A DNA stretch of 64,000 bases from Acidimicrobiales bacterium. Lineage in GTDB: Bacteria; Actinomycetota; Acidimicrobiia; Acidimicrobiales; Bin134. Location of the stretch: positions 1,092,514 to 1,156,513 of the forward strand of contig OZ246892.1 in the NCBI GenBank assembly GCA_965231915.1. Direction: 5' to 3'. The notes beneath the pieces are model-generated. The model had not been told where the DNA came from. It was given only the letters and a program-made list of their open reading frames with translations, and made no database searches. Below, one piece after another: positions 3,711-43,403 of this stretch. Positions within the stretch are counted from its first letter, which is position 1. Each line of letters starts with the position of its first letter. A program made the translations under genes and the position numbers.

Positions 3711-4601
3711 CTACCCGGCTGCCCAACCCAGCTCAGCCTTCATGGCCTGCTCTCCCCGACGGCCAATGGTGAGGAGTCGGTGGTCGTTGGAGCGGCCGTC
3801 CAACCAGGCCCGAATGGCCCGCATCGACGCGGTGAAGGAGCGGATCCGCTCGAAGCGGGTGGCATAGGCCAGCCGCTCTTGGTCGATCGGGTGACCGTAG
3901 TCAGCTGAGTCCTCCACAGTGCACCAGCCGGAGAAACGATGGGTGAAGGCCACATCGCACATGGGGTCGCCGGCCCAGGCCCGCTCCCAGTCCAAGATGC
4001 CGCCCAGCTCCCCGGGCCCCGTCCAGCTCATGTTGGCGAACCGGTAGTCGCCGTGGCACCAAACCGCGGGCTCGTCGCAGTCGGGCCGGTGGGCTCGCAG
4101 CCATCTCAGGGCAGCCTCGAATTCTGGGTGGCGGTCAGGGGCGGCCCGTCGGTAGACGGCCTCAGTTCGGTCGAGCTCGGTGTCGTAGGCCTCGGCCACC
4201 GACATTGGGGCTTCCAGGCGGTGCATCTGACCCAACGCCTGAGCCGCGGCAGTGTTGTACTCCGAACGATGCTCGGTCACGTCTGTGAGCCGCAGCACCC
4301 GCCCCGGCACCCGGGTGTGGACGCCGAACGGCCGCCCGATGGGGTTGTCGGCCTCCGCCTGCACGGCTAGCACCCGGGGAGCGGGCACAACCCCCTCCAC
4401 CCGCCGCAGGTTGGCCGCCTCAGCCTGGGGGTCGTAGGGGTCCAGCGATCCGCCCAGAGGCGCCACCCGCACGATCACGTCGTCCACCCCTAGCGTCACC
4501 CAGGAAAATCCCCGGTCCAAGCGCTCTACTCGGGGCAGGGCGCCTACTCCATCGAACAATTCAGTTACCGCTCGTCCCACCGCGGCGGGCGACAAGTCCA
4601 C
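3711..4601 (-). CDS. APH/choline-kinase-family phosphotransferase
   Basis: WCHGDYRFANM catalytic loop and ILDWERAWAGDP (DxD-type Mg site). Confidence 0.75.
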   Translation of the reverse strand: MDLSPAAVGRAVTELFDGVGALPRVERLDRGFSWVTLGVDDVIVRVAPLGGSLDPYDPQAEAANLRRVEGVVPAPRVLAVQAEADNPIGRPFGVHTRVPGRVLRLTDVTEHRSEYNTAAAQALGQMHRLEAPMSVAEAYDTELDRTEAVYRRAAPDRHPEFEAALRWLRAHRPDCDEPAVWCHGDYRFANMSWTGPGELGGILDWERAWAGDPMCDVAFTHRFSGWCTVEDSADYGHPIDQERLAYATRFERIRSFTASMRAIRAWLDGRSNDHRLLTIGRRGEQAMKAELGWAAG

Positions 4602-4703
4602 CAGTGGAGCGTACCGGGCTAATCGACCGCCAAGGGTCGCCCAACCGTTGGGCTAGCTCTGGTGCCCGATAACGTCGCCTGAAGTGTTGGTTGGGGGAAA
4701 CGC

Positions 4704-5888
4704 GTGAACACTCGGTCGGCAGCTGGCCGGGGTCCGGCGGTGGTTGCGGCCAGCATGCTGGCACTGGGCGTCGGCTCCAGTCTGGGCTTCTTCCCCGGAT
4801 ATTTCGTCGCCGCGGTGCGCGAAGACCTCGGGATATCCCGCGCCCAGGTCGGGCTGTTGGTGAGCCTGCACTTTGGCTGCACCGGCTTGGGTTCGATCAT
4901 TGGGGCCCGGATCACCGAGAAGATCGGAACCCGTGCCGCGGTGGTTGCCGATCAATTGATCGTGGCGGTGGCCGCATGGTCGGCCGCCCTCCTCGACAGC
5001 TACCCCGCCTTGATCGGGGCCGCGGTATTTGCCGGTTTCGGCTACTCCCTGACCAACGCGGCCACCAACGAAGCGGTGGCCGCCGCTGTGCCAGAAAGCC
5101 GTCGCACGCTGGCATTGTCGGCCAAGACGTCCGGGGTGCCGACAATGGCGCTGATAAGCGCAGTCTTGGTGCCCTGGGCTTCCGACCGCTGGAGTTGGAA
5201 CCTCATCTTGATGATTGCCGGGACCATTGCGGCAGTCAGTGCGCTCAATGCAGCTGCGGTCATACCCGACATCCGCTCCTCCCGAACACGGGCGCAGCGC
5301 CAAGAATCGGTCCTTCCCCGTGGGTTCTGGTGGTTCGCGGTGTCTGCTTTCTTCTTGGTCGGCTCCTCGCAGCCGCTGTTTTCTTGGGCAGTGCCGTATT
5401 TTGACGAAGGGCTGGGCACCTCCAAACCAGTGGCGGGCGCTATCGCCGGAATAGCCGCTGGACTGGGAGCGGTCTGCATGTCGCTGACCGCGTTGCGGGC
5501 CGACTATCTCGGTCGAACCAAGCGGGTGCCGCTCATTGTCGGGCTGTGCGTGGTGTTGACCGCGTCGATTCTCGTGACCATGAGCGGTCTGACGTTTGGC
5601 CTGGCTGTGGCCACCATCGGTCTGTTCGCCGGCTTTATCGTCCAGCTGGCCGCCATCGGCATCATGCACGCCGCGGTGGTCGATCGGGCCCCGCAAGCCG
5701 TGGCCCGGGCCACCGGCGTCACCATGACCGGCTACTACATGGGTGCGCTGGCCACCCCGGTGAGCTTCGGCGCGCTGGTGGACTGGCTCGGCACCTACAC
5801 CTGGGCCTGGTTGGTCATGGCCCTAGGCAGCGCCGCCGCGGCCGCCTGCTTCGCCCGCGCCAACCGGGTCGGTGAGATGCGGTCTTGA
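4704..5888 (+). CDS. MFS transporter
   Basis: ~12 predicted hydrophobic spans, GTG start, 394 aa, loop motif GARITEKIGTR. Confidence 0.7.
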   Translation: MNTRSAAGRGPAVVAASMLALGVGSSLGFFPGYFVAAVREDLGISRAQVGLLVSLHFGCTGLGSIIGARITEKIGTRAAVVADQLIVAVAAWSAALLDSYPALIGAAVFAGFGYSLTNAATNEAVAAAVPESRRTLALSAKTSGVPTMALISAVLVPWASDRWSWNLILMIAGTIAAVSALNAAAVIPDIRSSRTRAQRQESVLPRGFWWFAVSAFFLVGSSQPLFSWAVPYFDEGLGTSKPVAGAIAGIAAGLGAVCMSLTALRADYLGRTKRVPLIVGLCVVLTASILVTMSGLTFGLAVATIGLFAGFIVQLAAIGIMHAAVVDRAPQAVARATGVTMTGYYMGALATPVSFGALVDWLGTYTWAWLVMALGSAAAAACFARANRVGEMRS

Positions 5889-29963: not shown

Positions 29964-30012
29964 GCGACCGCTAGCGACCGGTGTGGGGTTGGCTTGCGAC
30001 CGGTTGCGACCG
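29964..30012 (+). promoter_or_regulatory. four GCGACCG heptamers in two 10-bp-spaced pairs upstream of AlpA copy 2
   Basis: GCGACCGctaGCGACCGGTGTGGGGT ... GCGACCGgttGCGACCGGTGGGGTGT, ending 25 nt before ATG 30037. Confidence 0.4.
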
Positions 30013-30036
30013 GTGGGGTGTCGCATAGTGGCGGGC

Positions 30037-30315
30037 ATGGAAACCAACATTCGAGAACAGCACGACACCTTGTTGACCCGACCGCAGGTCGAGGCCCGCT
30101 GCGGGCTGTCCAGGAGCTCGGTTTACCGGCTGATGCGCGAGGGCCTGTTCCCCGAGCCGATCCGCGTCGGCCGGCGCGCCGTGCGCTGGCCCGCATCGGA
30201 GATCGACGAATGGCTCGCCACCCGGCCCCGGGCCACCGCCCCGCCGCTTAGACCGCCGGTCGAACACACAAGGTCTCGCTTCCGACCGACGGGCACCTCC
30301 AAGACCATGGCATGA
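30037..30315 (+). CDS. AlpA/Xis-like MerR-type DNA-binding protein (copy 2)
   Basis: LLTRPQVEARCGLSRSSVYRLMREGLFPEPIRVGRRAVRWPASEIDEWL. Confidence 0.75.
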   Translation: METNIREQHDTLLTRPQVEARCGLSRSSVYRLMREGLFPEPIRVGRRAVRWPASEIDEWLATRPRATAPPLRPPVEHTRSRFRPTGTSKTMA

Positions 30316-30416
30316 CTAGGCACAGTATAACAGCCTGAAGTGACAGAAACCCTCGTTACGCTGGGGATTTAGGGCACACTTGGGAACATCCGGCAAGGGC
30401 GAAGAACCGTGATTAG

Positions 30417-30489
30417 TACCCCCAACGGGATTCGAACCCGTGTTACCGCCTTGAAAGGGCGGCGTCCTAGGCCGCTGGACGATGGGGGC
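30417..30489 (-). tRNA. tRNA-Glu (TTC)
   Basis: Acceptor GCCCCCA/TGGGGGT (G1-U72), anticodon stem CCGCC/GGCGG with loop CUUUCAA, T-arm ACGGG-UUCGAAU-CCCGU. The last 20 nt form att-like repeat copy 2. Confidence 0.9.
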
Positions 30490-30586: not shown

Positions 30587-31051
30587 GTGGAGAACGAAGT
30601 CTGGCGCTGGCTTTGGACGTGCTCCGCGGTGGTCTTTTCGCTGGCCGAGGTGTTCACCGCCGGGTTCTTCCTGCTTCCCTTCGCCATCGGCGCGGCCGCG
30701 GCGGCGGTTTTGGCCTGGGTGGACGCCCACATCCTGTTGCAGTGGTTGGTCTTTTTTGTGGGCAGCGCCGTCAGCTTTGTCTACTTGCGCCGGTTCGTCC
30801 GTCGCCTCGACGACGATGAGCAGCCCCGGGTAGGGGCCAACCGGCTCATTGACGCCCATGGCAAGATCATCGAGCGGGTGGACGACGACGCGCAGACCGG
30901 CATGGTGCGCATCGGGGGCGAGGAATGGCGGGCCTCTTCGGCTGAACCTATTGAAGTCGACACCAGGGTCATGGTCACCGAAATCGACGGCACTCGCCTG
31001 GTGGTGGTTCCAATTCCCCAAGAGCAAACAACTGAGAACGCAGAAAGCTAG
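30587..31051 (+). CDS. NfeD-family membrane protein
   Basis: Two or three N-terminal TM spans plus a C-terminal OB-like domain (MVRIGGEEWRA...VMVTEIDGTRLVV); GTG start after AGGAG. Confidence 0.75.
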   Translation: MENEVWRWLWTCSAVVFSLAEVFTAGFFLLPFAIGAAAAAVLAWVDAHILLQWLVFFVGSAVSFVYLRRFVRRLDDDEQPRVGANRLIDAHGKIIERVDDDAQTGMVRIGGEEWRASSAEPIEVDTRVMVTEIDGTRLVVVPIPQEQTTENAES

Positions 31052-31060
31052 GAAATAGTT

Positions 31061-32005
31061 ATGGAACCAGTCGTCGCCCTATTCATCATCATCGCGCTGG
31101 TGCTCATCCTCATCGCCGCGCTGGGAATCCGGATCATCCGCCCCTTTGAGCGGGGTCTTATCGAGATGCTGGGCCGCTACCAGCGCACGGTGGACTCGGG
31201 CCTGAGGTGGATCCTCCCGTTCGTGCAACGCATCAGCAAGGTCGACATGCGGGAGCGGGTCATCGACGTGCCCCCCCAAGAGGTCATCACCAAAGACAAC
31301 GTGGTGGTCACTGTCGACGCGGTGATCTTCTTCGAGGCCACCGACCCGGTGAAGCTCAAGTACAACGTGGGCAATTTCCAGTTGGCGGTCACCAAGCTGG
31401 CCCAAACCAACCTGCGTAACGTGATCGGCGACCTCGATCTCGACGCCGCCCTCACCTCCCGGGAGCTGATCAACGGCAAGCTGCGCCAGATCCTCGACGA
31501 CGCCACCGACAAGTGGGGGACCCGAGTGGTGCGAGTAGAGATCCAGCGCATCGAGCCGCCGCCCGACGTCACCGAAGCCATGCACCGTCAGATGAAGGCC
31601 GAGCGCGACCGCCGGGCCATCGTCACCGAGGCCGAGGGCGACAAGCGGTCGGCCATCTTGCGCTCCGAGGGCCTCAAGCAGAGCCAGATCTTGGAGGCCG
31701 AGGGCGAGGCTGAGGCCATCAAGCGGGTGGCTGACGCCGACCGCTATCAGAAGGAGACCGTGGCCCAAGGCGAGGCCAACGCCATCGAGTCGGTGTTCGG
31801 CGCCATCCACAACGGCGACCCCACCCCCGACCTGATTGCCATCCGCTATCTCGAAGCCCTCCAAGAGGTGGCCGACGGCCAAGCCACCAAGATCTTCCTG
31901 CCCCTCGACACCAGCGGCTTCACCAACGCGGTGGCCTCTTTATCGGAAATCGCTCGAGCCGGCCAGGGCGAACCGACCTCTCGACCAGCTGAGGATGGCG
32001 AATAG
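31061..32005 (+). CDS. SPFH/band-7 (stomatin-like) protein
   Basis: N-terminal [18 protein letters not shown], coiled [11 protein letters not shown] region; classic NfeD-SPFH pair. Confidence 0.85.
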
Positions 32006-32485
32006 TCAGAGCTCGGAGGCCGATGCCTCCACCAAGTGCTCCAGCAGCCAGCCCAGGTACCAGTAGGCCGATCGAGCCACTGATTCGGGGTCGTCGCTAT
32101 CCATGTCGTCATCTAGTTCGTCGTCTTCAGTGACCTCTAGTCGAGTGCCCAGCACCAGCCGGAGGTCGTTTACAGCACCCATCCACGCGGCCAACTGGTC
32201 TTGATCCAAGACCGTCGCCTCGGCCAAGTCGGCGACGGCGTCCAATCGAGCCAGGCGCTTCGACACCAGCTCGTCCCGCACCATCTCCCGGAACTCGGCC
32301 TCGGCCTCGGGATCGTCGGGCCGAGCGGTGGGGAACAACCGCGTCAGGATCTCGTCGCCCGGGTCTTCAGCCAGCAGTGACCGCAGGTCAGGGACGATGG
32401 CGGCGATCAGCGCCCGCTCCTCGTCCCGCAGATTCAGGCTGAATGTCCCGTCCCCATTGGGCTCCACCGGTCGTTGCGGCGCCAT
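32006..32485 (-). CDS. DUF2017-family protein
   Basis: LFPTARPDDPEAEAEFREM, acidic C-terminus; TAATG junction with clpS, the usual actinobacterial ClpS-DUF2017 pair. Confidence 0.65.
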   Translation of the reverse strand: MAPQRPVEPNGDGTFSLNLRDEERALIAAIVPDLRSLLAEDPGDEILTRLFPTARPDDPEAEAEFREMVRDELVSKRLARLDAVADLAEATVLDQDQLAAWMGAVNDLRLVLGTRLEVTEDDELDDDMDSDDPESVARSAYWYLGWLLEHLVEASASEL

Positions 32486-32793
32486 TAGCTGTCGTGCTCC
32501 ATGGTGGCCCACAGGCCGTGCTCGTGCAGGCGAAATACGTCCATCTCCGCCTTCTCCAAGGGGCCGTCCGACACCACCGCCCGTCCCTTGTAGTGGACGT
32601 CCAGCATGAGCTGCGTGGCCTTCTCCTTGCTGTAGCCGAACAGCTTCTGGAACACGAAGGTCACATACGACATCAAATTGATGGGGTCATTCCACACGAT
32701 CACCTTCCACGGCCGGTCGGGCCGCACATCGGTGTCATCGTCGGGCTGTTTCACCTCGGCTGGGGCGATCTCAACGGGGGCAGGGGGGGTCAT
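32485..32793 (-). CDS. clpS: ATP-dependent Clp protease adaptor ClpS
   Basis: [46 protein letters not shown]; ATGA overlap with ctaA stop. Confidence 0.85.
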
Positions 32794-33701
32794 GCCGGAA
32801 CCGCCTGAGCGACTTCCGCCTCGGCCCGTACCAGCGGGCCTCTCACGTTGAGCCAGAAGAACACGGTGACAATCCACAGTAGGGCGGCCCCCGCGATGTG
32901 AGCGCCCACCAAGAGAACTGGAACCCCGGTGAAGTACTGCACGTACCCGATGAGCCCTTGGGCCAGGGCCACGCCCAGCACGGTGCGGCCCCACAACTGG
33001 GCTTGCTCGGGAGCGCCTCTCTGCCGCAGCCACCACACCATTGCTGCCAGCACCACCAGCAATGCCACAACCGTGGTCCCGTGGATCTGGGCCACGTCCC
33101 GCACGGCCACGTCGATGCGCTCAGCATCCTCGTCGCCGCTGTGCGGCCCTGCGCCGGTGACAATGGTGCCGGTCACGATCACCACCGAGGTGAGTGCCAC
33201 CATGGCGTTTCCCATCCAGTGGGGGCGCGGTCTCGGATGGCTTTGGCGCTCGTAGGCCTCTGAGGCCCGCCACAGCAGAACCACCGCATTCCACAGGAGC
33301 ACCATCGACAGCAAGAAGTGGCCGATCACCAGTGCCGGGGGCAGTTCGTACAGCACAACCAGACCCCCCAAAACGATTTGGGCCAGCACCCCAGCCACCA
33401 ATCCCCACGACAGCCACACCAAGTCGGCTCGGCGCGGCTTGCGCCAATGGGATCCCAGTACCGCGGCTATAACGATGGCCGATACCAGCCCGGTTATGAG
33501 CCGGTTAATGAACTCGATCATGGCGTGGGTCTCCAGCGGGGCGACCAGCTGGTCGTTGTCGCACGCTGGCCAGTCAGGGCAGCCCAGCCCTGAGCCGGTG
33601 AGTCGGACCGCGCCGCCGCTGACGATGATCAACGCCAAAAGGGCCAGCGCCCAGACGGTGATCTTGCGATAGGCAGCGGGGGAAACCCGGGGTTGGATCA
33701 C
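32790..33701 (-). CDS. ctaA: heme A synthase (COX15/CtaA)
   Basis: [20 protein letters not shown]-terminal Cys pair, paired His-containing helices (HAMIEF, HGTTV), 8-TM length. Confidence 0.85.
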
Positions 33702-33833: not shown

Positions 33834-34736
33834 ATGGGTCTTACCCAACTGTCTCCTCGCAGCCGCACGCGCACGGCACGGGCATACGTAGCTCTCACCA
33901 AGCCCCGCATCATCGAGCTATTGCTGGTGACCACGGTGCCCACCATGGTGGTGGCCGATCGGGGCATCCCCTCGGTGTGGCTGATGGTGGCCACCGTTAT
34001 CGGCGGCACGCTGGCTGCCGGCGGGGCTAACGCCATCAACATGTACGTAGACCGCGACATCGACCGGCTCATGGAGCGCACCAAGAACCGCCCCTTGGTG
34101 ACCGGGGAGGTATCCCCCCTCGGCGCTCTGGTGTTCGCCATCGTCTTGGAAGCAGGGGCCTTCGCCTGGCTGTGGGGATTCGTGAACCTCCTCAGCGCGG
34201 TGCTGGCGGTTTCGGCCACCGCGTTCTACGTGTTTGTGTACACGCTGTGGCTCAAGCGCACGTCCACCCGCAACATCGTCATCGGTGGGGCGGCCGGCGC
34301 CGTTCCGGTCTTGGTGGGCTGGTCGGCGGTGACCAACAGCCTGGGCTGGGCCCCGCTGGTCCTGTTCGGCGTCATCTTCTACTGGACCCCGCCCCACTTC
34401 TGGGCCCTGGCCATCCGCTACCGGGATGACTACCGGGCGGCCAATGTGCCCATGTTGCCGGCGGTGGCCAGCACCCGCACCACCGCGGTACGAATGCTGG
34501 GCTATACCGGGGTTCTGTGGGGGCTGTCGTTACTGTTCAGCGCGGTGGGCGACATGGGACTGGTGTATCTGATTAGCGCCGTGGTGCTGGGCGCCGTTTT
34601 CTTGTATTTCGCCATCGATGTGCTGCGCACCCAGGCAACCGCTTCGGCGATGCGAATGTTCTCCTATTCCATCACTTACATCACCCTGCTGTTCGCCGCT
34701 ATGGCAGTCGACCAGGTGGTTCGCACCGGTGTTTGA
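33834..34736 (+). CDS. ctaB: protoheme IX farnesyltransferase (heme O synthase)
   Basis: ANAINMYVDRDIDRLMERTKNRPL, YWTPPHFWALA UbiA-family motifs. Confidence 0.9.
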   Translation: MGLTQLSPRSRTRTARAYVALTKPRIIELLLVTTVPTMVVADRGIPSVWLMVATVIGGTLAAGGANAINMYVDRDIDRLMERTKNRPLVTGEVSPLGALVFAIVLEAGAFAWLWGFVNLLSAVLAVSATAFYVFVYTLWLKRTSTRNIVIGGAAGAVPVLVGWSAVTNSLGWAPLVLFGVIFYWTPPHFWALAIRYRDDYRAANVPMLPAVASTRTTAVRMLGYTGVLWGLSLLFSAVGDMGLVYLISAVVLGAVFLYFAIDVLRTQATASAMRMFSYSITYITLLFAAMAVDQVVRTGV

Positions 34737-34844: not shown

Positions 34845-36488
34845 ATGACCCTCACCGAAACGAGGCCAGAAGCAGAAGCGGTCGCGGCAGGCGACGACGC
34901 GAGGCCGGCGACCGAGTCGTCGGCCCCCCAGTGGACCCCGCCCACTGGATTGGCCCGGTTCCTGAGCACCGGCGACCACATCACGATCGGCCAGATGTAC
35001 GTGGTCTTCTCGCTGCTCCTCTCAGGGCTGGCGCTGGCCCTCGGAGTGTTGATCGGGATCGAGCAGGCCGACATCGACGGCGGCTTCGGCATCTTCAACA
35101 ACGCCAACGAGCTCTTCCAGGTTTTCGGCCTGTACCGGACCACGCTGATCCTGTGCGGGCTGGTGCCCTTATTCCTTGGCTTGGCCATTGCTGTGATTCC
35201 CCGCCAGATCGGCGCCTCTTCGGTGGCCTTCCCCCGGGCGGCCGCGGCGGCGTTTTGGACCTGGCTCGTGGGGTCTATAGCCCACATCGCGGCCACCTTC
35301 TCCTACGGGGGCTTGGGCTCGGTCGAAGCCGGTGCGGCCCGCGAGCAGTCGGTGGAGCTGACCGTGCTGTCTTTGAGCATGATCGGACTGGGCCTTTTGG
35401 TCGGGTCCGGCGTGGTCTTCACCACGCTCATCACCCAGCGCCCGGCAGCGATGGACCTTCTTCAGATGCCCGCCTTCTCTTGGTCGATGCTGGTAGCCAC
35501 CGGAGTGTGGCTGTTCTCACTGCCTGTGCTGTTGGCCAACCTCGTCGTCTCCTGGGTTGACATGCGGGGGGCCGACGCCCTGCGCTTTGGCGGCGGAGAT
35601 GCCCCATTGGAATTGGTCGCCTGGGCCTTCGACGCACCTCAGGTTTACGCCTGGACCATTCCGCTCCTCGGCATCGTGGCCGAGGTCTTCACTGCCGCCC
35701 ACCGCAGCAGCCCGAAGATGTTCGAACCTATGGCCTTCATCGTGGGTGCCTTCGGGCTGTTGTCCTTTGGCGCTTGGGCCCAGAGCTTCTTCGACAGCCC
35801 CGATCCGCTGGCCGACGACGCCCACATCGTGACCAACGAGGTGCTGTTCACCGCATTCGCCTTGGCTATCGCCCTGATGGTGGCGGCTTACGGCGGTTGG
35901 CTGGCGTTCAATGCCTATTCCGCCGGGCAACGCCCCCAGATCACCCCTCAGTTCGCCTTGGTCGTGGTCTCCGGCTCTCTATTGACCGCGGCGGCGGTAA
36001 CCGGCGTGCTGCGGGTAGCCGAACCCGCACTTGGTGTGCTGCGGGAGGCCGATGGGGACATCTGGCGGGGTTTCTTCGACGCCATGGACGACTTGGAGAC
36101 CTCCAGCCTGGTCACCGGGTTGATGAATTTCGCGGTGTTGGGCGGAATATTGGCCGCGGTGGCCGGCCTCTTCCACTGGGCGCCGCGCCTGCTGGGACGC
36201 CCCCTCAATGCCCCGTTGGGCTTCTTGTCGGTGTTGCCGTTGACCGGGGGCGCCATCCTCATCGGGGCCACCGACGCACTGGGCGGATTCTTCGACCAGC
36301 CGGCCCGTCCCTACGAGACCGGCAGCATTGGAGACATCGACGCACTGGGCTTCGTCGAAGCCCTGAACGTGATCGGGTTGATCGGCTACATCGCCGTGCT
36401 GGGCGGTTTGGCCCTGGTGGCGCTGAACGTGGCCCGCAGCCTCTCCCTGCCCGCCGAGGCCGGGGCCGACGGAGAAGGGGAGGCCTGA
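34845..36488 (+). CDS. heme-copper oxidase subunit I-like protein lacking the canonical metal ligands
   Basis: Collinear with the CtaD in this window (FLSTGDHITIGQMY; SSVAFPRAAAAAFW; WAFDAPQVYAWTIPLLGIVAEVF; LFHWAPR). All six ligand His columns are substituted. Confidence 0.75.
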   Translation: MTLTETRPEAEAVAAGDDARPATESSAPQWTPPTGLARFLSTGDHITIGQMYVVFSLLLSGLALALGVLIGIEQADIDGGFGIFNNANELFQVFGLYRTTLILCGLVPLFLGLAIAVIPRQIGASSVAFPRAAAAAFWTWLVGSIAHIAATFSYGGLGSVEAGAAREQSVELTVLSLSMIGLGLLVGSGVVFTTLITQRPAAMDLLQMPAFSWSMLVATGVWLFSLPVLLANLVVSWVDMRGADALRFGGGDAPLELVAWAFDAPQVYAWTIPLLGIVAEVFTAAHRSSPKMFEPMAFIVGAFGLLSFGAWAQSFFDSPDPLADDAHIVTNEVLFTAFALAIALMVAAYGGWLAFNAYSAGQRPQITPQFALVVVSGSLLTAAAVTGVLRVAEPALGVLREADGDIWRGFFDAMDDLETSSLVTGLMNFAVLGGILAAVAGLFHWAPRLLGRPLNAPLGFLSVLPLTGGAILIGATDALGGFFDQPARPYETGSIGDIDALGFVEALNVIGLIGYIAVLGGLALVALNVARSLSLPAEAGADGEGEA

Positions 36489-37084
36489 TGGCCGATATCC
36501 CCGTCGGGACGCCCCTCGCCGCTCCGCTGCCCCGCCAGCGCACCCTTTTGGTGGGCACTGTCTTCGGCACCGCCGCCTCTCTCATGTTCTTTGCCGCCCT
36601 GTTTGGGGTGTACCTGCGGGAGCGGTCCGACGCCCTCTCCGGTGGCGGTGAATGGATCCCGTCCGGTGCCAACATCCAACTGGCCCCGCCCACGGTGGCG
36701 GCCTGGACCTTGCTCATGTCGGTGGTCACCATGCAGTGGGCGGTGTACTCCATCGCCCGCGATGACCGCACCCACGCCATCATGGCCACTGCGCTGACCA
36801 CGTTGTTCGGCCTCTCGGTGGTGGTCACAACCTCGTTCCAGTACACCGAGATGGGTTTGGTGGCCGACGAGTCCATCGCGGCCATGTTGATCTACACCAT
36901 CTCGGGTTCGCACCTGGCCATGATCGCCATCGGATTGGTGTTCCTGCTCCTGATGGCCTTCCGGGCCCTGGCCGGCCAGTACAGCAGCCGCCAGACCGAC
37001 GGGTTTGTGGCCGCGGCCATCTATTGGTACGCCGTTGTATTCGTCTATGTCGTCATCTGGACGGCGATCTTCGTGCTGAAGTAG
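36488..37084 (+). CDS. cytochrome oxidase subunit III-like protein (short, 5-TM type)
   Basis: ATG overlaps the upstream TGA. 198 aa; MFFAALFGVYLRER, IYWYAVVFVYVVIW resemble actinobacterial CtaE. Confidence 0.65.
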   Translation: MADIPVGTPLAAPLPRQRTLLVGTVFGTAASLMFFAALFGVYLRERSDALSGGGEWIPSGANIQLAPPTVAAWTLLMSVVTMQWAVYSIARDDRTHAIMATALTTLFGLSVVVTTSFQYTEMGLVADESIAAMLIYTISGSHLAMIAIGLVFLLLMAFRALAGQYSSRQTDGFVAAAIYWYAVVFVYVVIWTAIFVLK

Positions 37085-37091
37085 GCCCCTG

Positions 37092-37925
37092 GTGTTCACC
37101 CCCGGCTTCCGTTTGTTCTTCGGCTTCACCCTCGCCGCGGTGGCCGCGGCCGCCGTCTACGGCGTGGCCAGCGGGAGCGCGGGCGATACCGAGTACTTCG
37201 CGGTGCTCAATGTGGAGACCTGGGTAGGCGTCCTCAGCCTCGGCTACAAGGGCGGCGTTGGCGATCACGTGGGCTATGTGGTGCTCATGGGCTTTGCCGT
37301 GCTGTCGGCATTGGTGGCCCTGTTCTTGGTGGCTTTCCGCGACGCCGACGCCGAGTCGGTGGGCGAGTTGATGGAAGACGGCCAGACCCCCGAGCCGCAA
37401 GCCGACTTGGAGGCCAACTACTGGCCGGCTGTGGCCGCCTTCGGGGTGGGGGCGATGATCTTGGGTCTGGTTACCCACGCCACCATCTTCGTGGTCGGCC
37501 TGGTGATCGTGGGAGCAGCCATCTTCGAGTGGATGCTGGCGGCGTGGGCCGACCGGGCCACCGCCGACCCGGTGGTCAACCGCAACCTGCGCAATCGCAT
37601 CATGCGCCCCATCGAATATCCGGTGACCGCCGCGCTCGGCGTGGCGGTGCTGGTTCTGGCCCTGTCCCGAGTGCTGTTGACGGTCTCCCAGTTCAGCGCG
37701 GTCATGGTGGCCGGAGTGGTGTCCACTGTGATCTTCTTGATCGCGGTGGTGTTCGCCGTCGGCCCCAATATCAGCCGGTCGGTGATCGCCGGCACAGTGG
37801 CAGTTGTATGTGTCGGCGTCTTGGTGGCCGGGGTGATTACCGCGGCAATGGGATCGCGCGACTTCCACCACAAGGTGCCGGCCTCTGAGCACGGTGTTCC
37901 AGCGGCCGAGAATGGAGGACACTAG
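37092..37925 (+). CDS. polytopic membrane protein with a subunit-IV-like segment
   Basis: NYWPAVAAFGVGAMILGL...VGAAIFEWMLAAW parallels SYWPIILGGGILLVGYGL...VGAIYGWILEP at the C-terminus of CtaD. Confidence 0.55.
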   Translation: MFTPGFRLFFGFTLAAVAAAAVYGVASGSAGDTEYFAVLNVETWVGVLSLGYKGGVGDHVGYVVLMGFAVLSALVALFLVAFRDADAESVGELMEDGQTPEPQADLEANYWPAVAAFGVGAMILGLVTHATIFVVGLVIVGAAIFEWMLAAWADRATADPVVNRNLRNRIMRPIEYPVTAALGVAVLVLALSRVLLTVSQFSAVMVAGVVSTVIFLIAVVFAVGPNISRSVIAGTVAVVCVGVLVAGVITAAMGSRDFHHKVPASEHGVPAAENGGH

Positions 37926-37959
37926 TGGGGGTGCGGAGGTTGACGAGGGGCGGTGCCCG

Positions 37960-39249
37960 ATGAGCAGGCGGCTCAAGGCGCTTGTCTGGCTGTCGAGCCT
38001 GCTGGTGATCGCCGGCACCATCGCCCTCATAGTGGTCGGCATTGTGGTCACCGACGACCACCCGCTGTCCACCCTGTCTCCGGTGGGCCGCCAGGGCCGC
38101 GACATCGCCCGGCTCATCAACCCCATCTTCATCGTGGCCGGTGTGGTGTTCTTCCTGGTGCAGGGGGCGGTGCTGGCGCTGTGGTGGCGCTACCGGGTGG
38201 GCGGCTCCGAAACCGGCGACGGCGAGCACGGCTTCTACGAAGACGACGAGTTCCCCGACCAGATCCATGGCAACGACCGCCTCGAGATCGCCTGGACCAT
38301 CGTGCCGACCATTCTGCTGGCGGTCATCTCGGTGTTCACCCTGGTGGCTCTGTTTGCCCTCGACGACGTGGAGGCCTCCGAAGAGGACATGGTGGTCACC
38401 GTGATCGGCCAGCAGTGGTGGTGGGAGTACCACTACCACCTGGACGGCGACACCACGACTGCGCCCGACTTCGTGACCGCCAACGAACTGGTCATACCTG
38501 CTGGAGTCGATATAGCCCTCGACATCAAATCGCGCGACGTGATCCACTCCTTTTGGATCCCCAAGCTGAACGGCAAGCGCGACGCCGTGCCCGGCCGCAG
38601 CCACGATTGGGTGATCCAAGCCGACAACCCCGGCCGCTATCGGGGGCAGTGCACCGAGTTCTGCGGTCTCTCCCACGGCTACATGAAGATGGTGGCCGTA
38701 TCCCTCACCCCCTCAGAATTCGCCCAGTGGAGAGACAACCAGATGACGGAGGCGGTCAAGCCCGAGGGCCACTCTGACGATCCTGATGATGATAAATCGC
38801 GGGAATTCAAGGGCTATGAGATTTTCAGCCAGCAGTGCGCTAGTTGCCACGTGGTCAACGGGCTCACCTCCGCGGCCGACCGAGGCGGCGACCCCGACTC
38901 ACCGCCCGACGGCTGGGACATCTACGGCGAGTTCAACGGCGACAGCGCCGGCCCGGCCATCACCGACGACCTAATCGCCGGCGCCGCCCCCAACCTGACC
39001 CACTTGATGACCCGGGGCACGTTCGCCGGATCGATCTTCGACCTCTATTTGGGGGCCGGCGACCACATCCCGTACCTGGAACTGGCCAACCAGGGCACCC
39101 TCAACCGAGGCGACCTGGAGGCCTGGATCTACAACGCCCCCGAGCGAAAGCCCGCCGATGCCGACGGCCTCCGGGGAATGCCCGCCCGCACCGGTTTGAG
39201 CCCCGACGACATCGACAACGTCGTTGCCTTCCTGTCCACCCTCGACTGA
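37960..39249 (+). CDS. ctaC: cytochrome c oxidase subunit II fused to cytochrome c (caa3 type)
   Basis: DVIHSFWIPKLNGKRD, CuA site CTEFCGLSHGYM, C-terminal heme-c motif CASCH. Confidence 0.9.
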   Translation: MSRRLKALVWLSSLLVIAGTIALIVVGIVVTDDHPLSTLSPVGRQGRDIARLINPIFIVAGVVFFLVQGAVLALWWRYRVGGSETGDGEHGFYEDDEFPDQIHGNDRLEIAWTIVPTILLAVISVFTLVALFALDDVEASEEDMVVTVIGQQWWWEYHYHLDGDTTTAPDFVTANELVIPAGVDIALDIKSRDVIHSFWIPKLNGKRDAVPGRSHDWVIQADNPGRYRGQCTEFCGLSHGYMKMVAVSLTPSEFAQWRDNQMTEAVKPEGHSDDPDDDKSREFKGYEIFSQQCASCHVVNGLTSAADRGGDPDSPPDGWDIYGEFNGDSAGPAITDDLIAGAAPNLTHLMTRGTFAGSIFDLYLGAGDHIPYLELANQGTLNRGDLEAWIYNAPERKPADADGLRGMPARTGLSPDDIDNVVAFLSTLD

Positions 39250-39259
39250 TTGTGATGAA

Positions 39260-41380
39260 ATGACCATCACCGACCGCACGATCACCGCCCCAGAGGAGAC
39301 CTTGGCGCTGCCTGCGGGCCCTGCTGTTGCCCACCGCCCCCTGGGCGTGTTCACCCGGCCTCAAGGCAGCGAGGGCTGGAGGAGCTGGCTGTTCACCGTC
39401 GACCACAAGCGCATCGGCATCATGTACGGCGCGGCGGCCATGTTCTTCTTCCTGGTGGGCGGCGCCGAAGCCCTGTTCATCCGCCTCCAACTAGCCACCC
39501 CCAACGGCTCGGTAATCGGCGCCGGCACCTACAACGGCGTGTTCACCATGCACGGCGTGACCATGGTGTTCCTGGTGATCATGCCCATGGCCGCGGCCTT
39601 CGCCAACTACCTGCTCCCCTTGCAAGTGGGGGCCCGAGACGTGGCCTTCCCCCGTCTCAACGCCTTCAGCTTCTGGTGCTTCTTGGCCGGCGGCCTTTTG
39701 CTCGTCTCCTCGATCTTCATCGGCGGCTGGTTCCAGAACGCCCCCGACGGCGGCTGGTTCAACTACGCCCCCAACAGCGGGCTGCCGTTCTCACCGTCCA
39801 AGGGGATCGACTTCTACGCGGTCGGCTTGCAGATAACCGGTATCGCGTCGCTGGTCAGCTCCATCAACCTGATCGTCACCGTGTTGAACATGCGTACCAA
39901 GGGCATGAGCTTCTTCCGAATGCCCGTGCTCACCTGGATGCTGCTCATCACCCAGTTCCTGCTGCTGTTCGCCATCCCGGTCATCACCGTGGCCCTGTTC
40001 TTGTTGATGTTCGACCGGCTGTGGGACGCCAACTTCTTCAACGTGGAGGCCGGGGCCGACCCGCTGCTGTGGCAGCACCTGTTCTGGATATTCGGCCATC
40101 CCGAGGTGTACATCTTGATCCTGCCCGCCTTCGGGATCGTGTCGGAGATCATCCCCACGTTCTCCCGCAAGCCCCTGTTCGGCTACCACTTCATGGTCGC
40201 CTCCGGGATCGCCATCGGCTTCATGGGCTGGGGGGTGTGGGCCCACCACATGTTCACCTCGGGCATCGGGCCGCTGGCGGTGGCCGCGTTCTCGGTGTCC
40301 ACCATGTTCATCGCCGTGCCCACCGGGGTGAAGATCCTCAACTGGTTGGCCACCATGTACCGGGGCCGACTGCGATTTACCACCCCCATGCTCTATGCCG
40401 TGGGCGTGGTGTCGATGTTCACCATCGGCGGGCTGTCGGGGGTGACCCACGCCATCGCTCCGTCCGACACCCAGCAGACCGACACCTATTACATCGTGGC
40501 CCACTTCCACTACGTGATCTTTGGCGGGGCGCTGCTCGGTTTGTTCGGCGGCTTCCACTTCTGGTGGCCCAAGGCGTTCGGCTACAAGCTGAATGAGGCG
40601 TGGGGCAAGGCCGCCTTCTGGATATTGCTCATCGGCTTCAACTTCACCTTCGGACCCATGCACATATTGGGTTTGCAGGGCATGTCCCGGCGCATTGCCA
40701 CCTACCGGGCCGACGAGGGCTTCGCGCTGTGGAACATGGTGGCCACCGTCGGAGCGTTCGTGATCGCCGTCGGGGTGGCCATGTTCTTGTGGAACATCTA
40801 CGCCAGCACCCGCAAATGGAAGCGGGACGGCCGACCCGACGTGGGCCCCGATCCGTGGGACGCCCGCGGCCTGGAATGGATGACCGCCTCTCCGGTGCCC
40901 GAGCACAACTTTGACTCGGAGATAGAGGTGGAGCGCCTCGACGACTTCTGGCACCGCAAGTACGGCGTCGACGAGAACCACCGGGTGGTGAAAACCGCCA
41001 CCGCCGAAGAAGTGGCCCACGACGGCAGCAACACCAAAGTACACCTGCCGTCGCCGTCGTACTGGCCCATCATTTTGGGTGGAGGCATCCTGCTGGTGGG
41101 CTACGGCCTCATCTACAACCTGTGGCTGGCCGCCGCCGGGCTCGTGCTTTTGGTGGGGGCCATCTACGGCTGGATCCTGGAGCCGGCCGACGATCCCGAT
41201 GCCGCCGGCCACCACGACGATCATCACGACGACGGCGATGACCACGGCGACCCCTCCGGCAACGGCGGACCGGGCGGTAACGGTGAGTCTGCCTCGGCCT
41301 CCGCGCCGGCTGATACCGAGGAGGCTGGAGGATCAGTGGATGCTTCTGCTGAGACCGAGGAGGTCCAGACCGTTGGCTGA
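39260..41380 (+). CDS. ctaD: cytochrome c oxidase subunit I with C-terminal 2-TM extension and His/Asp-rich tail
   Basis: WLFTVDHKRIGIMY, FTMHG, WIFGHPEVYILILP, WAHHMF, AHFHYV all present; extension from about residue 560. Confidence 0.9.
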   Translation: MTITDRTITAPEETLALPAGPAVAHRPLGVFTRPQGSEGWRSWLFTVDHKRIGIMYGAAAMFFFLVGGAEALFIRLQLATPNGSVIGAGTYNGVFTMHGVTMVFLVIMPMAAAFANYLLPLQVGARDVAFPRLNAFSFWCFLAGGLLLVSSIFIGGWFQNAPDGGWFNYAPNSGLPFSPSKGIDFYAVGLQITGIASLVSSINLIVTVLNMRTKGMSFFRMPVLTWMLLITQFLLLFAIPVITVALFLLMFDRLWDANFFNVEAGADPLLWQHLFWIFGHPEVYILILPAFGIVSEIIPTFSRKPLFGYHFMVASGIAIGFMGWGVWAHHMFTSGIGPLAVAAFSVSTMFIAVPTGVKILNWLATMYRGRLRFTTPMLYAVGVVSMFTIGGLSGVTHAIAPSDTQQTDTYYIVAHFHYVIFGGALLGLFGGFHFWWPKAFGYKLNEAWGKAAFWILLIGFNFTFGPMHILGLQGMSRRIATYRADEGFALWNMVATVGAFVIAVGVAMFLWNIYASTRKWKRDGRPDVGPDPWDARGLEWMTASPVPEHNFDSEIEVERLDDFWHRKYGVDENHRVVKTATAEEVAHDGSNTKVHLPSPSYWPIILGGGILLVGYGLIYNLWLAAAGLVLLVGAIYGWILEPADDPDAAGHHDDHHDDGDDHGDPSGNGGPGGNGESASASAPADTEEAGGSVDASAETEEVQTVG

Positions 41381-41384
41381 CACT

Positions 41385-42017
41385 ATGGCTGCCGAGACGA
41401 CGGCCTCTGAGGCTGCTGCTCACACTGAGGAGCATCACGACGGGGGGCACCACACCAACACCGGCATCTCCAACGAGAAACTGGCCATGTGGGTGTTCCT
41501 GGGTTCGGAGTGCCTGCTGTTCGGCGGGCTTATCTCCACCTACATGTTCAACAAGGGCCGCATCGGCCCCAACGACATCGGCCCCAACGACGTGTTCGAC
41601 ATCCCGTTCACGTCGGTCAGCTCATTCGTGCTGCTGATGAGCTCGCTGACCATGGTGTTCGCGGTGTCGGCCATCGCCAAGGGCGATCTCCGGGGCAACC
41701 GCATCTGGCTGGCCACCACCGCCGCGCTGGGGGCCACCTTCGTGGCTGGGCAGGTGTACGAGTTCACCGCGTTCTACAGCGAGGGCCTGGGTTTCACCAC
41801 CAACCTTTTCGGCTCCGCCTTCTATGCCCTAACCGGCTTCCACGGCGCTCACGTCACCATCGGCATCATCATGCTGATGTCTCTGTTCGTGATGTCGATG
41901 CGGGGCAACCTCGGGCCGGAGCGGGCCGAGACCGTGGAGATCATCGGGCTGTACTGGCACTTCGTCGACGTCGTCTGGATCGTGATCTTCACGATCGTCT
42001 ACCTCTTCCCGCAATAG
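41385..42017 (+). CDS. ctaE: cytochrome c oxidase subunit III
   Basis: FYALTGFHGAHVTIG, LYWHFVDVVWIVIF. Confidence 0.9.
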   Translation: MAAETTASEAAAHTEEHHDGGHHTNTGISNEKLAMWVFLGSECLLFGGLISTYMFNKGRIGPNDIGPNDVFDIPFTSVSSFVLLMSSLTMVFAVSAIAKGDLRGNRIWLATTAALGATFVAGQVYEFTAFYSEGLGFTTNLFGSAFYALTGFHGAHVTIGIIMLMSLFVMSMRGNLGPERAETVEIIGLYWHFVDVVWIVIFTIVYLFPQ

Positions 42018-42025
42018 GAAACGCC

Positions 42026-42418
42026 ATGGCCACCGTCACCCCTGAATCTCCCGACATTTCCCCTGATCCTGCTGAATCCGCGCCCGGATTGCCAGGAGCA
42101 ATGCACTCTCCCGACACGGCCCACGCTCCGGACGAGCACGCCCATCCCACCAACTGGCTCTATGTCAAGGTGGCCATTGCCCTCGCGCTGCTCACCGCGT
42201 TCGAGGTGTTCACCTACTTCGAGTCGGTTCACGGGTGGGGCGACACCGCCATCATCATCATGCTGGTTTTGATGATGCTGGTGAAGTTCTTCTTGGTGGT
42301 GGCCTTCTTCATGCACCTGAAGTTCGACGCCCCGATCTTCTGGCGCTTATTCGTGTTCGGGCTGATATTGGCCATGGCGGTGTACATGGTCATGTTGACC
42401 GCATTCCGGTTTTGGTAG
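42026..42418 (+). CDS. ctaF: prokaryotic cytochrome oxidase subunit IV (CtaF/COX4_pro-like)
   Basis: 3 TM, KFFLVVAFFMHLKFD motif. Confidence 0.75.
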   Translation: MATVTPESPDISPDPAESAPGLPGAMHSPDTAHAPDEHAHPTNWLYVKVAIALALLTAFEVFTYFESVHGWGDTAIIIMLVLMMLVKFFLVVAFFMHLKFDAPIFWRLFVFGLILAMAVYMVMLTAFRFW

Positions 42419-42491: not shown

Positions 42492-43403
42492 ATGGCCCTT
42501 GCCGCCGAAACCGACATCTGGCGGTTCCAGCCTCACGCCGAGGTCTGGCTGATCCTGCTGGCCGCCATCGCCATGGCCTGGTACGCGGCCCGGATCATCG
42601 CTCCCAAGGCCGCTCCGGCGGGCGAAGCCCCGTTTGCCCGCTACCACAAGCTGGCCTTCGTCGGGGCCATGGTGTTGCTGTGGGTGGCCAGCGACTGGCC
42701 GATGCACGACATCTCCGAGGAGTACCTGTACTCGGTACACATGATCCAGCACCTGCTCATCACCTTTGTGGTGCCCCCGCTGCTGTGGGCGGCCATGCCC
42801 GAGTGGCTGGCCCGGCTGGTGCTCAGCGGCGACGGCAGCGCCGGGGTGTGGGTGCGGCGGCTGGCCCGGCCGGTGGTGGCCGGGGTTCTGTTCAACTTCA
42901 TGGTGGCGGTGAGCCACATCCCCTGGGTGGTCAACACCTCGGTGGAGAGCGGTGCCCTGCACTATTTCGTACACCTGCTGCTGTTCGGCTCCGCGATGGT
43001 GATGTGGCTGCCGGTGTGCGGCCCGATCCCCGAGCTGCGAATGGGCGCTCCCGGCAAGATGATCTACCTGTTCTTGATGTCGGTCGTGCCCACCGTGCCC
43101 GGCGCGTTCTTGACCTTTGCCCAGGGCGCGGTCTACAGCGTCTACGACCACGACGTCCGCATGTGGGGCATAGGCGTGCGGGCCGACCAGCAAGCGGCCG
43201 GGCTCATCATGAAGCTGGTGGGCGGCATGTACCTGTGGGCATGGATCGGGGTGCTGTTCTTCCGCTGGGCCGGCGTCCAGCAGCGGGCCAACACCCAGAT
43301 GCGGGTGGTGACCACAGTCCCGTCGGGGCCCATTGCCGCCGATACTCGGGTTCCGGCCACGTCGGGTTCCAACGGCTCCCGCACCACCAACGGTTCTCGA
43401 TGA
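42492..43403 (+). CDS. ctaG: cytochrome c oxidase assembly factor CtaG (caa3_CtaG family)
   Basis: Polytopic; MIQHLLITFVVPPLLW, MWLPVCGP. Confidence 0.8.
   Translation: MALAAETDIWRFQPHAEVWLILLAAIAMAWYAARIIAPKAAPAGEAPFARYHKLAFVGAMVLLWVASDWPMHDISEEYLYSVHMIQHLLITFVVPPLLWAAMPEWLARLVLSGDGSAGVWVRRLARPVVAGVLFNFMVAVSHIPWVVNTSVESGALHYFVHLLLFGSAMVMWLPVCGPIPELRMGAPGKMIYLFLMSVVPTVPGAFLTFAQGAVYSVYDHDVRMWGIGVRADQQAAGLIMKLVGGMYLWAWIGVLFFRWAGVQQRANTQMRVVTTVPSGPIAADTRVPATSGSNGSRTTNGSR

Follow-up and report, generated by a model that had tools for sequence, protein, structure and literature searches.

An Acidimicrobiales bacterium (assembly GCA_965231915.1) carries, between its haem A synthesis genes and the structural genes of a caa3-type cytochrome c oxidase, three genes that resemble the membrane core of a further oxidase, and the question raised by this locus is what such a set of genes does there. 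We analysed the trio within a 64,000-nucleotide (nt) stretch of contig OZ246892.1 (positions 1,092,514 to 1,156,513, forward strand), hereafter called the window, whose numbering is used throughout. The trio lies at 34845–37925 and encodes a subunit I homologue (ghost I), a subunit III-like protein (ghost III), and a third protein (P3). An earlier reading made from the DNA alone (the sequence-only reading) had described a complete non-catalytic paralogue set, I-, III-, and IV-like, placed between ctaA/ctaB and ctaCDEFG, for which it knew of no described function. The core of this description was supported, and full-text literature searches found no published description of a ligand-less subunit I family. 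The answer we favour, with a probability of roughly 0.45, is that the trio forms a functional, non-catalytic "pseudo-oxidase" sub-complex and serves the caa3 oxidase as a partner for docking, electron entry, or organisation.

A subunit I homologue without cofactor ligands

Ghost I is a full-length homologue of the Pfam COX1 family (PF00115; E-value 4.8e-33, 115 bits, cutoff 34.8) and shares 27% identity with the CtaD protein of the window across 420 residues (BLASTP). It scored far below the NCBIfam equivalog cutoffs (133.7 versus 670.75 bits for TIGR02891 and 112.6 versus 880 bits for NF050116). The ligand columns were read from three independent alignments, namely a BLASTP alignment with the window CtaD, a phmmer alignment with the mycobacterial CtaD (6hwh and 6adq), and a MAFFT alignment of 23 sequences. 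All three gave the same replacements: FTMHG in helix II corresponds to FGLYR in ghost I, FGHPEVY in helix VI to FDAPQVY, WAHHMF in helix VII to WAQSFF, and VAHFHYV in helix X to TGLMNFAV. The six invariant histidines by which a catalytic subunit I is recognised (two for the low-spin haem, one for the high-spin haem, and three for CuB) are Tyr, Ala, Gln, Ser, Leu, and Asn in the window protein, in agreement with the earlier claim that every metal-ligand column of this CoxI-like open reading frame (ORF) had changed.

The proton pathways have been altered as well. In the MAFFT alignment, the D-channel segment GARDVAFPRLNAFSFW is represented in ghost I by GASSVAFPRAAAAAFW, with the Asp replaced by Ser and the Asn by Ala, and neither the K-channel lysine motif PTGVKILNW nor the GMSRR arginine pair that contacts the haem propionates has a counterpart. 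The helix VI Glu of the proton pathway is replaced by Gln, and the Mg-site residues are also replaced. The cross-linked Tyr is retained in the window protein and is Phe or Leu in other family members. Judged by these columns, ghost I is left with no residue for binding haem or copper or for conducting protons. An unusual working oxidase or a nitric oxide (NO) reductase was ruled out, the haem ligands being wholly absent, and the label "cbb3-type cytochrome c oxidase subunit I", under which ghost I appears in NCBI and UniRef, is misleading.

The loss of ligands is a property of the family. The ligand histidines were absent in 22 of the 22 aligned members, which share 31–95% identity, except for a relic helix II His in P0120. 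Three ghost I proteins beyond these 22, from loci in which P3 carries a cupredoxin domain (intact in L089, degenerate in L086), also lack the ligands; that of L089, which was aligned separately, has the same relic His and is otherwise ligand-less. The profile alignment proposed in the sequence-only reading as a check of its claim therefore placed no His in the ligand columns, the relics in P0120 and L089 apart. Several polar residues are invariant in ghost I, and a near-invariant arginine, R98, stands beside the former haem a ligand position.

The structural check gave a similar picture. An AlphaFold2 model of ghost I, built on the family alignment, had a mean predicted local distance difference test score (pLDDT) of 81, a predicted template modelling score (pTM) of 0.85, and 12 helices, and it superposed on the bovine, Paracoccus, Rhodobacter, and mycobacterial CoxI structures with Foldseek template modelling (TM) scores of 0.74–0.80 (E-values of about 1e-17). 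The superposition of so confident a model on CoxI structures indicates that the 12-helix scaffold has been retained.

Ghost III matched Pfam COX3 (PF00510; E-value 9e-15, 55.7 bits, cutoff 23.8) over residues 19–195. Its best NCBIfam model was aa3_CtaE_Actin (68 bits, cutoff 190), and it remained below all of the NCBIfam equivalog cutoffs. The family has a motif of its own, MQWAVYxIxRDDR, and the canonical motifs GFHGxHV and YWHFVDVVW are altered in the alignment.

Gene order, constraint, and transcription

The gene row around the trio is as follows.

32790–33701, minus strand: ctaA, haem A synthase (Pfam COX15-CtaA, 86.6 bits); divergent from the cta cluster, in the same position in related loci
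33834–34736, plus strand: ctaB, haem O synthase of the UbiA family (Pfam UbiA, 212.5 bits); opens the plus-strand cluster
34845–36488, plus strand: ghost I, CoxI homologue of 547 amino acids, ATG start (Pfam COX1, 115 bits)
36488–37084, plus strand: ghost III, CoxIII-like protein of 198 amino acids with 5 helices (Pfam COX3, 55.7 bits)
37092–37925, plus strand: P3, 277 amino acids, GTG start, 7 predicted helices, of which the N-terminal 4 are CtaF-like
37960–39249, plus strand: ctaC, subunit II with a fused cytochrome c domain, caa3 type (Pfam COX2, COX2_TM, and Cytochrom_C; TIGR02866, 178.9 bits, above the cutoff)
39260–41380, plus strand: ctaD, bona fide subunit I with all ligands present (Pfam COX1, 514 bits; TIGR02891, 681.8 bits, above the cutoff)
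41385–42017, plus strand: ctaE, subunit III of the short 5-helix form (Pfam COX3, 78.3 bits)
42026–42418, plus strand: ctaF, Bacillus-type subunit IV (Pfam COX4_pro, 36.1 bits)
42492–43403, plus strand: ctaG, caa3-type assembly factor (Pfam Caa3_CtaG, 139.6 bits)

The frame of ghost I is intact, with GGAG 7 nt upstream of the ATG. Its TGA stop (36486–36488) overlaps the ATG of ghost III (36488–36490) by 1 nt in the junction cctGATGgcc, and GGGGAGG precedes this ATG. Gaps of 7 nt and 34 nt separate ghost III from P3 and P3 from ctaC, respectively; ctaC has a second possible start, a GTG at 37894. No terminator-like sites were found in the intergenic gaps of the row. The genes downstream of the trio are a complete, normal caa3 set, comprising CtaC with its fused cytochrome c domain, CtaD, CtaE, CtaF, and CtaG. 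The coordinates and frames, the junction sequence, and the Pfam and NCBIfam scans thus bear out what had been read from the DNA: an intact frame of 547 codons at 34845–36488, TGATG stop/start coupling to a short CoxIII-like gene, and a complete caa3 operon directly downstream of the module.

The module is conserved throughout the class Acidimicrobiia. A protein search with ghost I identified 174 relatives, the closest belonging to Candidatus Poriferisocius or Acidimicrobiales (sponge-associated) and the distant ones (31–45% identity) to Acidimicrobiales and unclassified Actinobacteria metagenome-assembled genomes. When one genome per species was scanned, at least 307 species-representative genomes contained a relative. 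Among the best 80 of these, all those with informative labels were Acidimicrobiia, several of them Candidatus Microthrix, except for one labelled Chthoniobacterales, which is probably mis-binned. Synteny was strict: besides the window, 11 loci were inspected (L047, L081–L084, and L086–L091), and every one had the row (DUF2017-ClpS-[ctaA]), ctaB, COX1-like gene, COX3-like gene, unannotated gene of 245–373 amino acids, ctaC (with cytochrome c), ctaD, ctaE, ctaF (and ctaG), and serS. L088 was consistent but fragmented, L088 and part of L087 being broken by assembly errors, and the row of L089 has one extra gene, which is thioredoxin-like.

The ghost proteins have diverged further than their neighbours. 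Between the window and L047, CtaD and CtaE are 71% and 72% identical, compared with approximately 38% for ghost I, 51% for ghost III, and 49% for P3. The ghosts clearly evolve faster than CtaD and CtaE, yet they are constrained. For a ghost I DNA alignment of the window, L010, and L031, codon positions were tallied manually in two blocks of 100 nt. Of the 48 variable columns, 32 were at codon position 3, 13 at position 1 (several of them Leu CTN/TTR exchanges), and 3 at position 2, a split that departs from equal expectation with a chi-square of about 27, and this third-position bias indicates purifying selection on ghost I. The alignment contained two indels, of 30 and 21 nt, both in frame. 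The sequence-only reading had suggested that relatives be surveyed for decay; their ORFs proved intact, in strict synteny, and with third-position-biased substitution.

In one relative, L047, the module is transcribed. Ghost I (including its start), ghost III, and P3 were all covered by seawater metatranscriptome contigs at approximately one-third of the depth of ctaC and ctaD; the depth over the flanking genes was 0. L047 is labelled Candidatus Microthrix sp. UBA2517, yet up to 45% of its words occurred in seawater metatranscriptomes, and its G+C content is much below that of the window; the label is probably a product of old taxonomic binning and not a sign of an activated-sludge Microthrix.

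The third protein and its cupredoxin-bearing relatives

P3 is more conserved than ghost I. Its N-terminal sequence MFTPGFRLFF is conserved in the homologues, and its invariant motifs are SLGxxGGxGxHxGY, RDAD, NYWP, and WADRATxDPxxNxxLRNRxMxPxExP. It had no Pfam or NCBIfam match, no match to PF12270 even at an E-value of 10, and none among the PDB sequences, whether searched with phmmer or with a P3 profile. All 434 close homologues are annotated as "hypothetical", and an exhaustive profile search extended the family to 949 representative clusters.

Foldseek searches with a low-confidence P3 model returned CtaF chains (7q21_F, 8hcr_H, and 6hwh_S) as the three best relevant matches. These were used as a lead only and were then checked with hhalign and intermediate sequences. 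The P3 family aligned collinearly with mycobacterial and corynebacterial CtaF (residues 6–141 with 5–123; probability 54%, E-value 1.3e-4), and residues 105–151 of P3 aligned with the YWP hairpin of the CtaD C-terminal extension (probability 92.6%, E-value 4.5e-7), the resemblance to a subunit IV-like segment that had been noticed by eye. One family member, P0280, itself exceeds the PF12270 cutoff (31.1 versus 26.9 bits) and also has a cupredoxin domain. We conclude that P3 probably consists of a CtaF-like four-helix unit followed by three more helices. When its topology was deduced from the sequence and the modelled helices (seven helices, with Arg-rich loops taken as cytoplasmic), the C-terminus was predicted to lie outside the cell. 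In the window, the protein ends after the last helix in a 23-amino-acid His-rich tail, at the place where relatives have a cupredoxin domain.

The CtaD extension (window 41000–41380) is itself a two-helix hairpin matching actinobacterial subunit IV (PF12270, 28.1 bits, residues 594–641 of CtaD), followed by a His/Asp-rich tail, GHHDDHHDDGDDHGD. It is kept in L047 and other loci, where the PF12270 match was flagged as weak. The caa3 oxidase of the window therefore mixes features of two oxidase lineages, with a PF12270-like extension on CtaD and a separate Bacillus-type CtaF.

The exhaustive search also revealed a subfamily of longer P3 proteins (340–410 amino acids), in which an acidic linker joins the seventh helix to a cupredoxin domain. 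These longer forms come from Acidimicrobiales, and their position in the operon is unchanged. In Pfam, the domain is of the Cupredoxin_1/Copper-bind, plastocyanin/azurin type (up to 55.9 bits). Complete type-1 copper ligands (His in xHNx, then C-D-V-H-P-x2-3-M) were present in eight aligned members (P0263, P0280, P0380, P0435, P0443, P0444, P0446, and P0447), and the site was degenerate in P0297, P0317, P0323, P0351, P0391, P0396, P0399, and P0401. The window clade and L047 have a short His/Glu/Asp-rich tail instead of the domain. The sequence-only reading had stated that there is no subunit II paralogue, which holds for the window but has to be amended for the family, in many members of which P3 ends in an extracytoplasmic cupredoxin that is not of the COX2 type. 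A COX2-type origin of this domain was rejected because Pfam gives Cupredoxin_1 and plastocyanin/azurin matches, no direct comparison with a CtaC profile having been made.

Since P3 relatives carry a cupredoxin, sometimes with a complete type-1 copper site, the ancestral module was probably not redox-inert. In L089, ghost I is ligand-less beside an intact cupredoxin, so the oxidase cofactors were lost before the cupredoxin. In the same locus, which comes from a soil relative, a TlpA/ResA-type thioredoxin-like gene (4358–4972; AhpC-TSA, Redoxin, and Thioredoxin matches) stands between the cupredoxin-bearing P3 gene and ctaC, an insertion suggestive of a connection with the maturation of CuA or cytochrome c.

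Origin, proposed role, and rival explanations

The ghost proteins scored differently from their neighbours against reference families. The ghost I profile matched mycobacterial CtaD best (272–283 bits), ahead of the B. subtilis aa3-600 oxidase Qox (263 bits), whereas the real CtaD matched Qox best (560 bits), ahead of mycobacterial CtaD (478–497 bits). Ghost III scored 68 bits with the actinobacterial CtaE model and 33 bits with CyoC, and the real CtaE scored 133 and 142 bits, respectively. These rankings, together with the CtaF-like part of P3, favour descent from an actinobacterial aa3-type core, and the module was probably derived from such a CtaD/CtaE/CtaF set. A recent tandem copy of the adjacent ctaD and ctaE was rejected, the ghosts scoring relatively better against actinobacterial aa3 subunits than those neighbours do.

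In the sub-complex reading favoured here, ghost I, a CoxI fold without haem, CuB, or proton channels, would assemble with ghost III and P3 into one membrane sub-complex, as their canonical homologues do. Encoded in one operon with haem A synthesis and caa3, this sub-complex would be a permanent accessory partner of the caa3 oxidase and would provide a platform for docking or organisation. In lineages with an intact cupredoxin, it would also place a copper site for electron entry close to the CuA and cytochrome c domains of CtaC. A fuller history can be sketched, which we put forward as possible rather than probable: an ancestral aa3 core may have lost all its cofactors after caa3 took over O2 reduction and may have been kept class-wide as an obligatory respiratory-chain adaptor, originally carrying a tethered blue-copper electron relay between the bc complex and caa3, which would make it the first pseudoenzyme branch among the haem–copper proteins.

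Several points weigh against the sub-complex reading. That the trio forms one complex, that this complex binds caa3, and what it does there are matters that we infer. Many lineages, that of the window among them, have a degenerate cupredoxin or none, so electron transfer cannot be the general function. The P3 model was poor (pLDDT 58, pTM 0.42), so the homology with CtaF rests on moderate profile scores and intermediate sequences, and the aa3 origin was drawn from score rankings rather than a phylogeny. A C-terminal motif kept by most ghost I family members, DPWxGxTLEWxTxSPPPxGNF, has been lost in the window clade, which suggests continuing reduction there. The L047 contigs are of low depth and could include some DNA; being contigs only, they demonstrate the presence of RNA and nothing more. 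No RNA was identified for the window organism itself: the runs that contain 97–99% of its words (X1–X4 and X25) look like DNA, with an unrecorded library type, 95-kb contigs, and a flat depth over the genes of both strands and the intergenic DNA.

The main rival explanation, which we consider less likely, is that the trio is a biogenesis scaffold, a transient platform for caa3 assembly. The module could stand in for CtaD and hold CtaC during the insertion of CuA and haem c, or copper or haem A could be handed to the nascent oxidase, and the outward end of P3, whether cupredoxin or His-rich tail, would be a copper-handling element. The gene order suits such a role, in that the trio is directly flanked by the haem A genes ctaA/ctaB on one side and by the structural genes on the other, the operon ends with the assembly factor gene ctaG, and the TlpA/ResA-type gene of L089 directly follows P3 and precedes ctaC. 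The P3 tails, rich in His, Glu, and Asp, are predicted to be outside the cell, and copper could be bound by either form of the P3 C-terminus, whereas only one of the two could transfer electrons. However, approximately 24 transmembrane helices in three stoichiometrically coupled proteins would be very large for a chaperone, and ghost I has no conserved residue able to replace the lost haem and copper ligands. Many lineages, moreover, have cupredoxins without metal ligands and no His-rich tail. Nor did the trio show any similarity to Surf1, Sco, PCuAC, Cox11/CtaG, Caa3_CtaG, or CtiP in the Pfam and NCBIfam scans, which gave only COX1, COX3, or nothing.

It is also conceivable, but improbable, that the CoxI/CoxIII scaffold has become a membrane machine that transports ions or small molecules or acts as a sensor, independently of the oxidase. 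Such a machine would account for the complete 12-helix fold modelled with high confidence, the near-invariant R98 by the former haem a ligand position with the other invariant polar residues, and the strongly conserved charged motifs of P3. The residues of both proton pathways have been replaced by Ser, Ala, or Gln, however, few conserved charged residues are left within the membrane, and the Pfam and NCBIfam scans gave no match to a transporter family; the trio is invariably placed within the cta operon, which speaks for a role linked to the oxidase. The last candidate, a decaying duplicate of the neighbouring oxidase genes, is effectively refuted by conservation and the codon pattern. The disappearance of all catalytic residues and a rate of evolution about twice that of ctaD and ctaE would fit pseudogenes, but hundreds of species-level genomes have intact ORFs, even at identities as low as 31%, with strongly conserved family-specific motifs. 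Third-position substitution bias and in-frame indels, translational coupling with good Shine–Dalgarno sites, and the RNA contigs over the genes in L047 speak in the same direction.

One of the known systems closest to the trio is the actinobacterial aa3 oxidase. In Mycobacterium and Corynebacterium, the aa3 genes have a split organisation, whereas the trio lies inside a Bacillus-like ctaB-ctaCDEFG caa3 operon. Like the CtaD/CtaE/CtaF core of the bcc-aa3 supercomplex (PDB 6hwh, 6adq, 8hcr, and 7q21), it combines proteins of the subunit I and short subunit III types with a putative counterpart of actinobacterial subunit IV; unlike that core, it has no ligands for haem a, haem a3, or CuB, no D or K channel, and no dedicated CuA subunit II. 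P3 differs from actinobacterial CtaF in its three extra helices and, in relatives, in the type-1 copper cupredoxin. The latter recalls AcoP of Acidithiobacillus ferrooxidans, a membrane-anchored cupredoxin that is encoded in an oxidase operon and partners an aa3 oxidase (PMC4059628, PMC5982212). The P3 proteins of relatives are likewise membrane-anchored single-domain cupredoxins encoded next to oxidase genes, with His/Cys/His/Met ligands facing the CuA side. AcoP, however, has one anchor helix, no CtaF-like part, and no cofactor-less CoxI and CoxIII paralogues, and the window P3 has no cupredoxin.

The core 1 and core 2 proteins of the mitochondrial bc1 complex derive from the matrix processing peptidase and, although catalytically dead, are kept as structural subunits. 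Ex-enzymes under selection as non-catalytic respiratory parts are our working analogy for the trio, with the reservations that the protein families are unrelated and that the association with the oxidase is inferred here. To our knowledge, all known haem–copper subunit I families are redox enzymes that reduce O2 or NO. The families in a survey of haem–copper proteins were all redox enzymes (bioRxiv 10.1101/2021.10.15.464467), including the divergent eNOR, sNOR, gNOR, and nNOR families, in which the Tyr or one active-site His is changed or lost. These belong to the same superfamily and also departed from O2 reduction through changes in the active site, but the ghost I family has lost all six histidines. 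The trio would represent a pseudoenzyme branch of this superfamily, in which the subunit I-like protein is accompanied by partners of the subunit III and subunit IV/cupredoxin kinds.

If this is correct, a 12-helix fold without cofactors, under selection across a class, would be a new functional category in a well-studied membrane protein superfamily and would represent a respiratory enzyme recycled as a structural or organising part. Because pipelines annotate ghost I as "cbb3-type", metabolic reconstructions may credit Acidimicrobiia, sponge symbionts and marine lineages among them, with a second terminal oxidase that is not there. The P3 series, from an intact type-1 copper site through degenerate cupredoxins to a His-rich tail, offers natural states for probing the function of the module, and a haem-free protein with the CoxI fold is attractive for studying the folding and stability of the oxidase scaffold.

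Some features of the locus and its surroundings were recorded in passing. In the DNA runs that hold the window, the depth triples over a 360-nt stretch of ctaD (39920–40280), and contigs with short (21–25 nt) sides join distant points of the cluster (36484 to 41681 and 39418 to 40501). Both are likely attributable to cross-mapping from the ctaD genes of other community members and to assembly-graph artefacts rather than to real rearrangements. A DUF2017-ClpS pair on the minus strand (32006–33036) adjoins ctaA/ctaB and kept its synteny with the cta cluster in all of the related loci examined. The mechanically called ClpS ORF has 183 amino acids from a GTG at 33036 and overlaps the 3′ end of ctaA, so the true start is probably internal; the ClpS of a relative was called at 102 amino acids. 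Upstream of the cluster, on the plus strand, is an NfeD/Band_7 (stomatin-like) gene pair (30587–32005), which is also present in the close relative L084 (95% identity). Farther upstream in the window (29983–30489), a tRNA-Glu gene (30416–30489, minus strand) lies beside a small AlpA/excisionase-like helix-turn-helix ORF (29983–30315, plus strand). In L084, the DNA upstream contains Toprim primase-like, phospholipase A2-like, and RCC1/WD40-repeat genes, and this region may be the edge of an integrated element.

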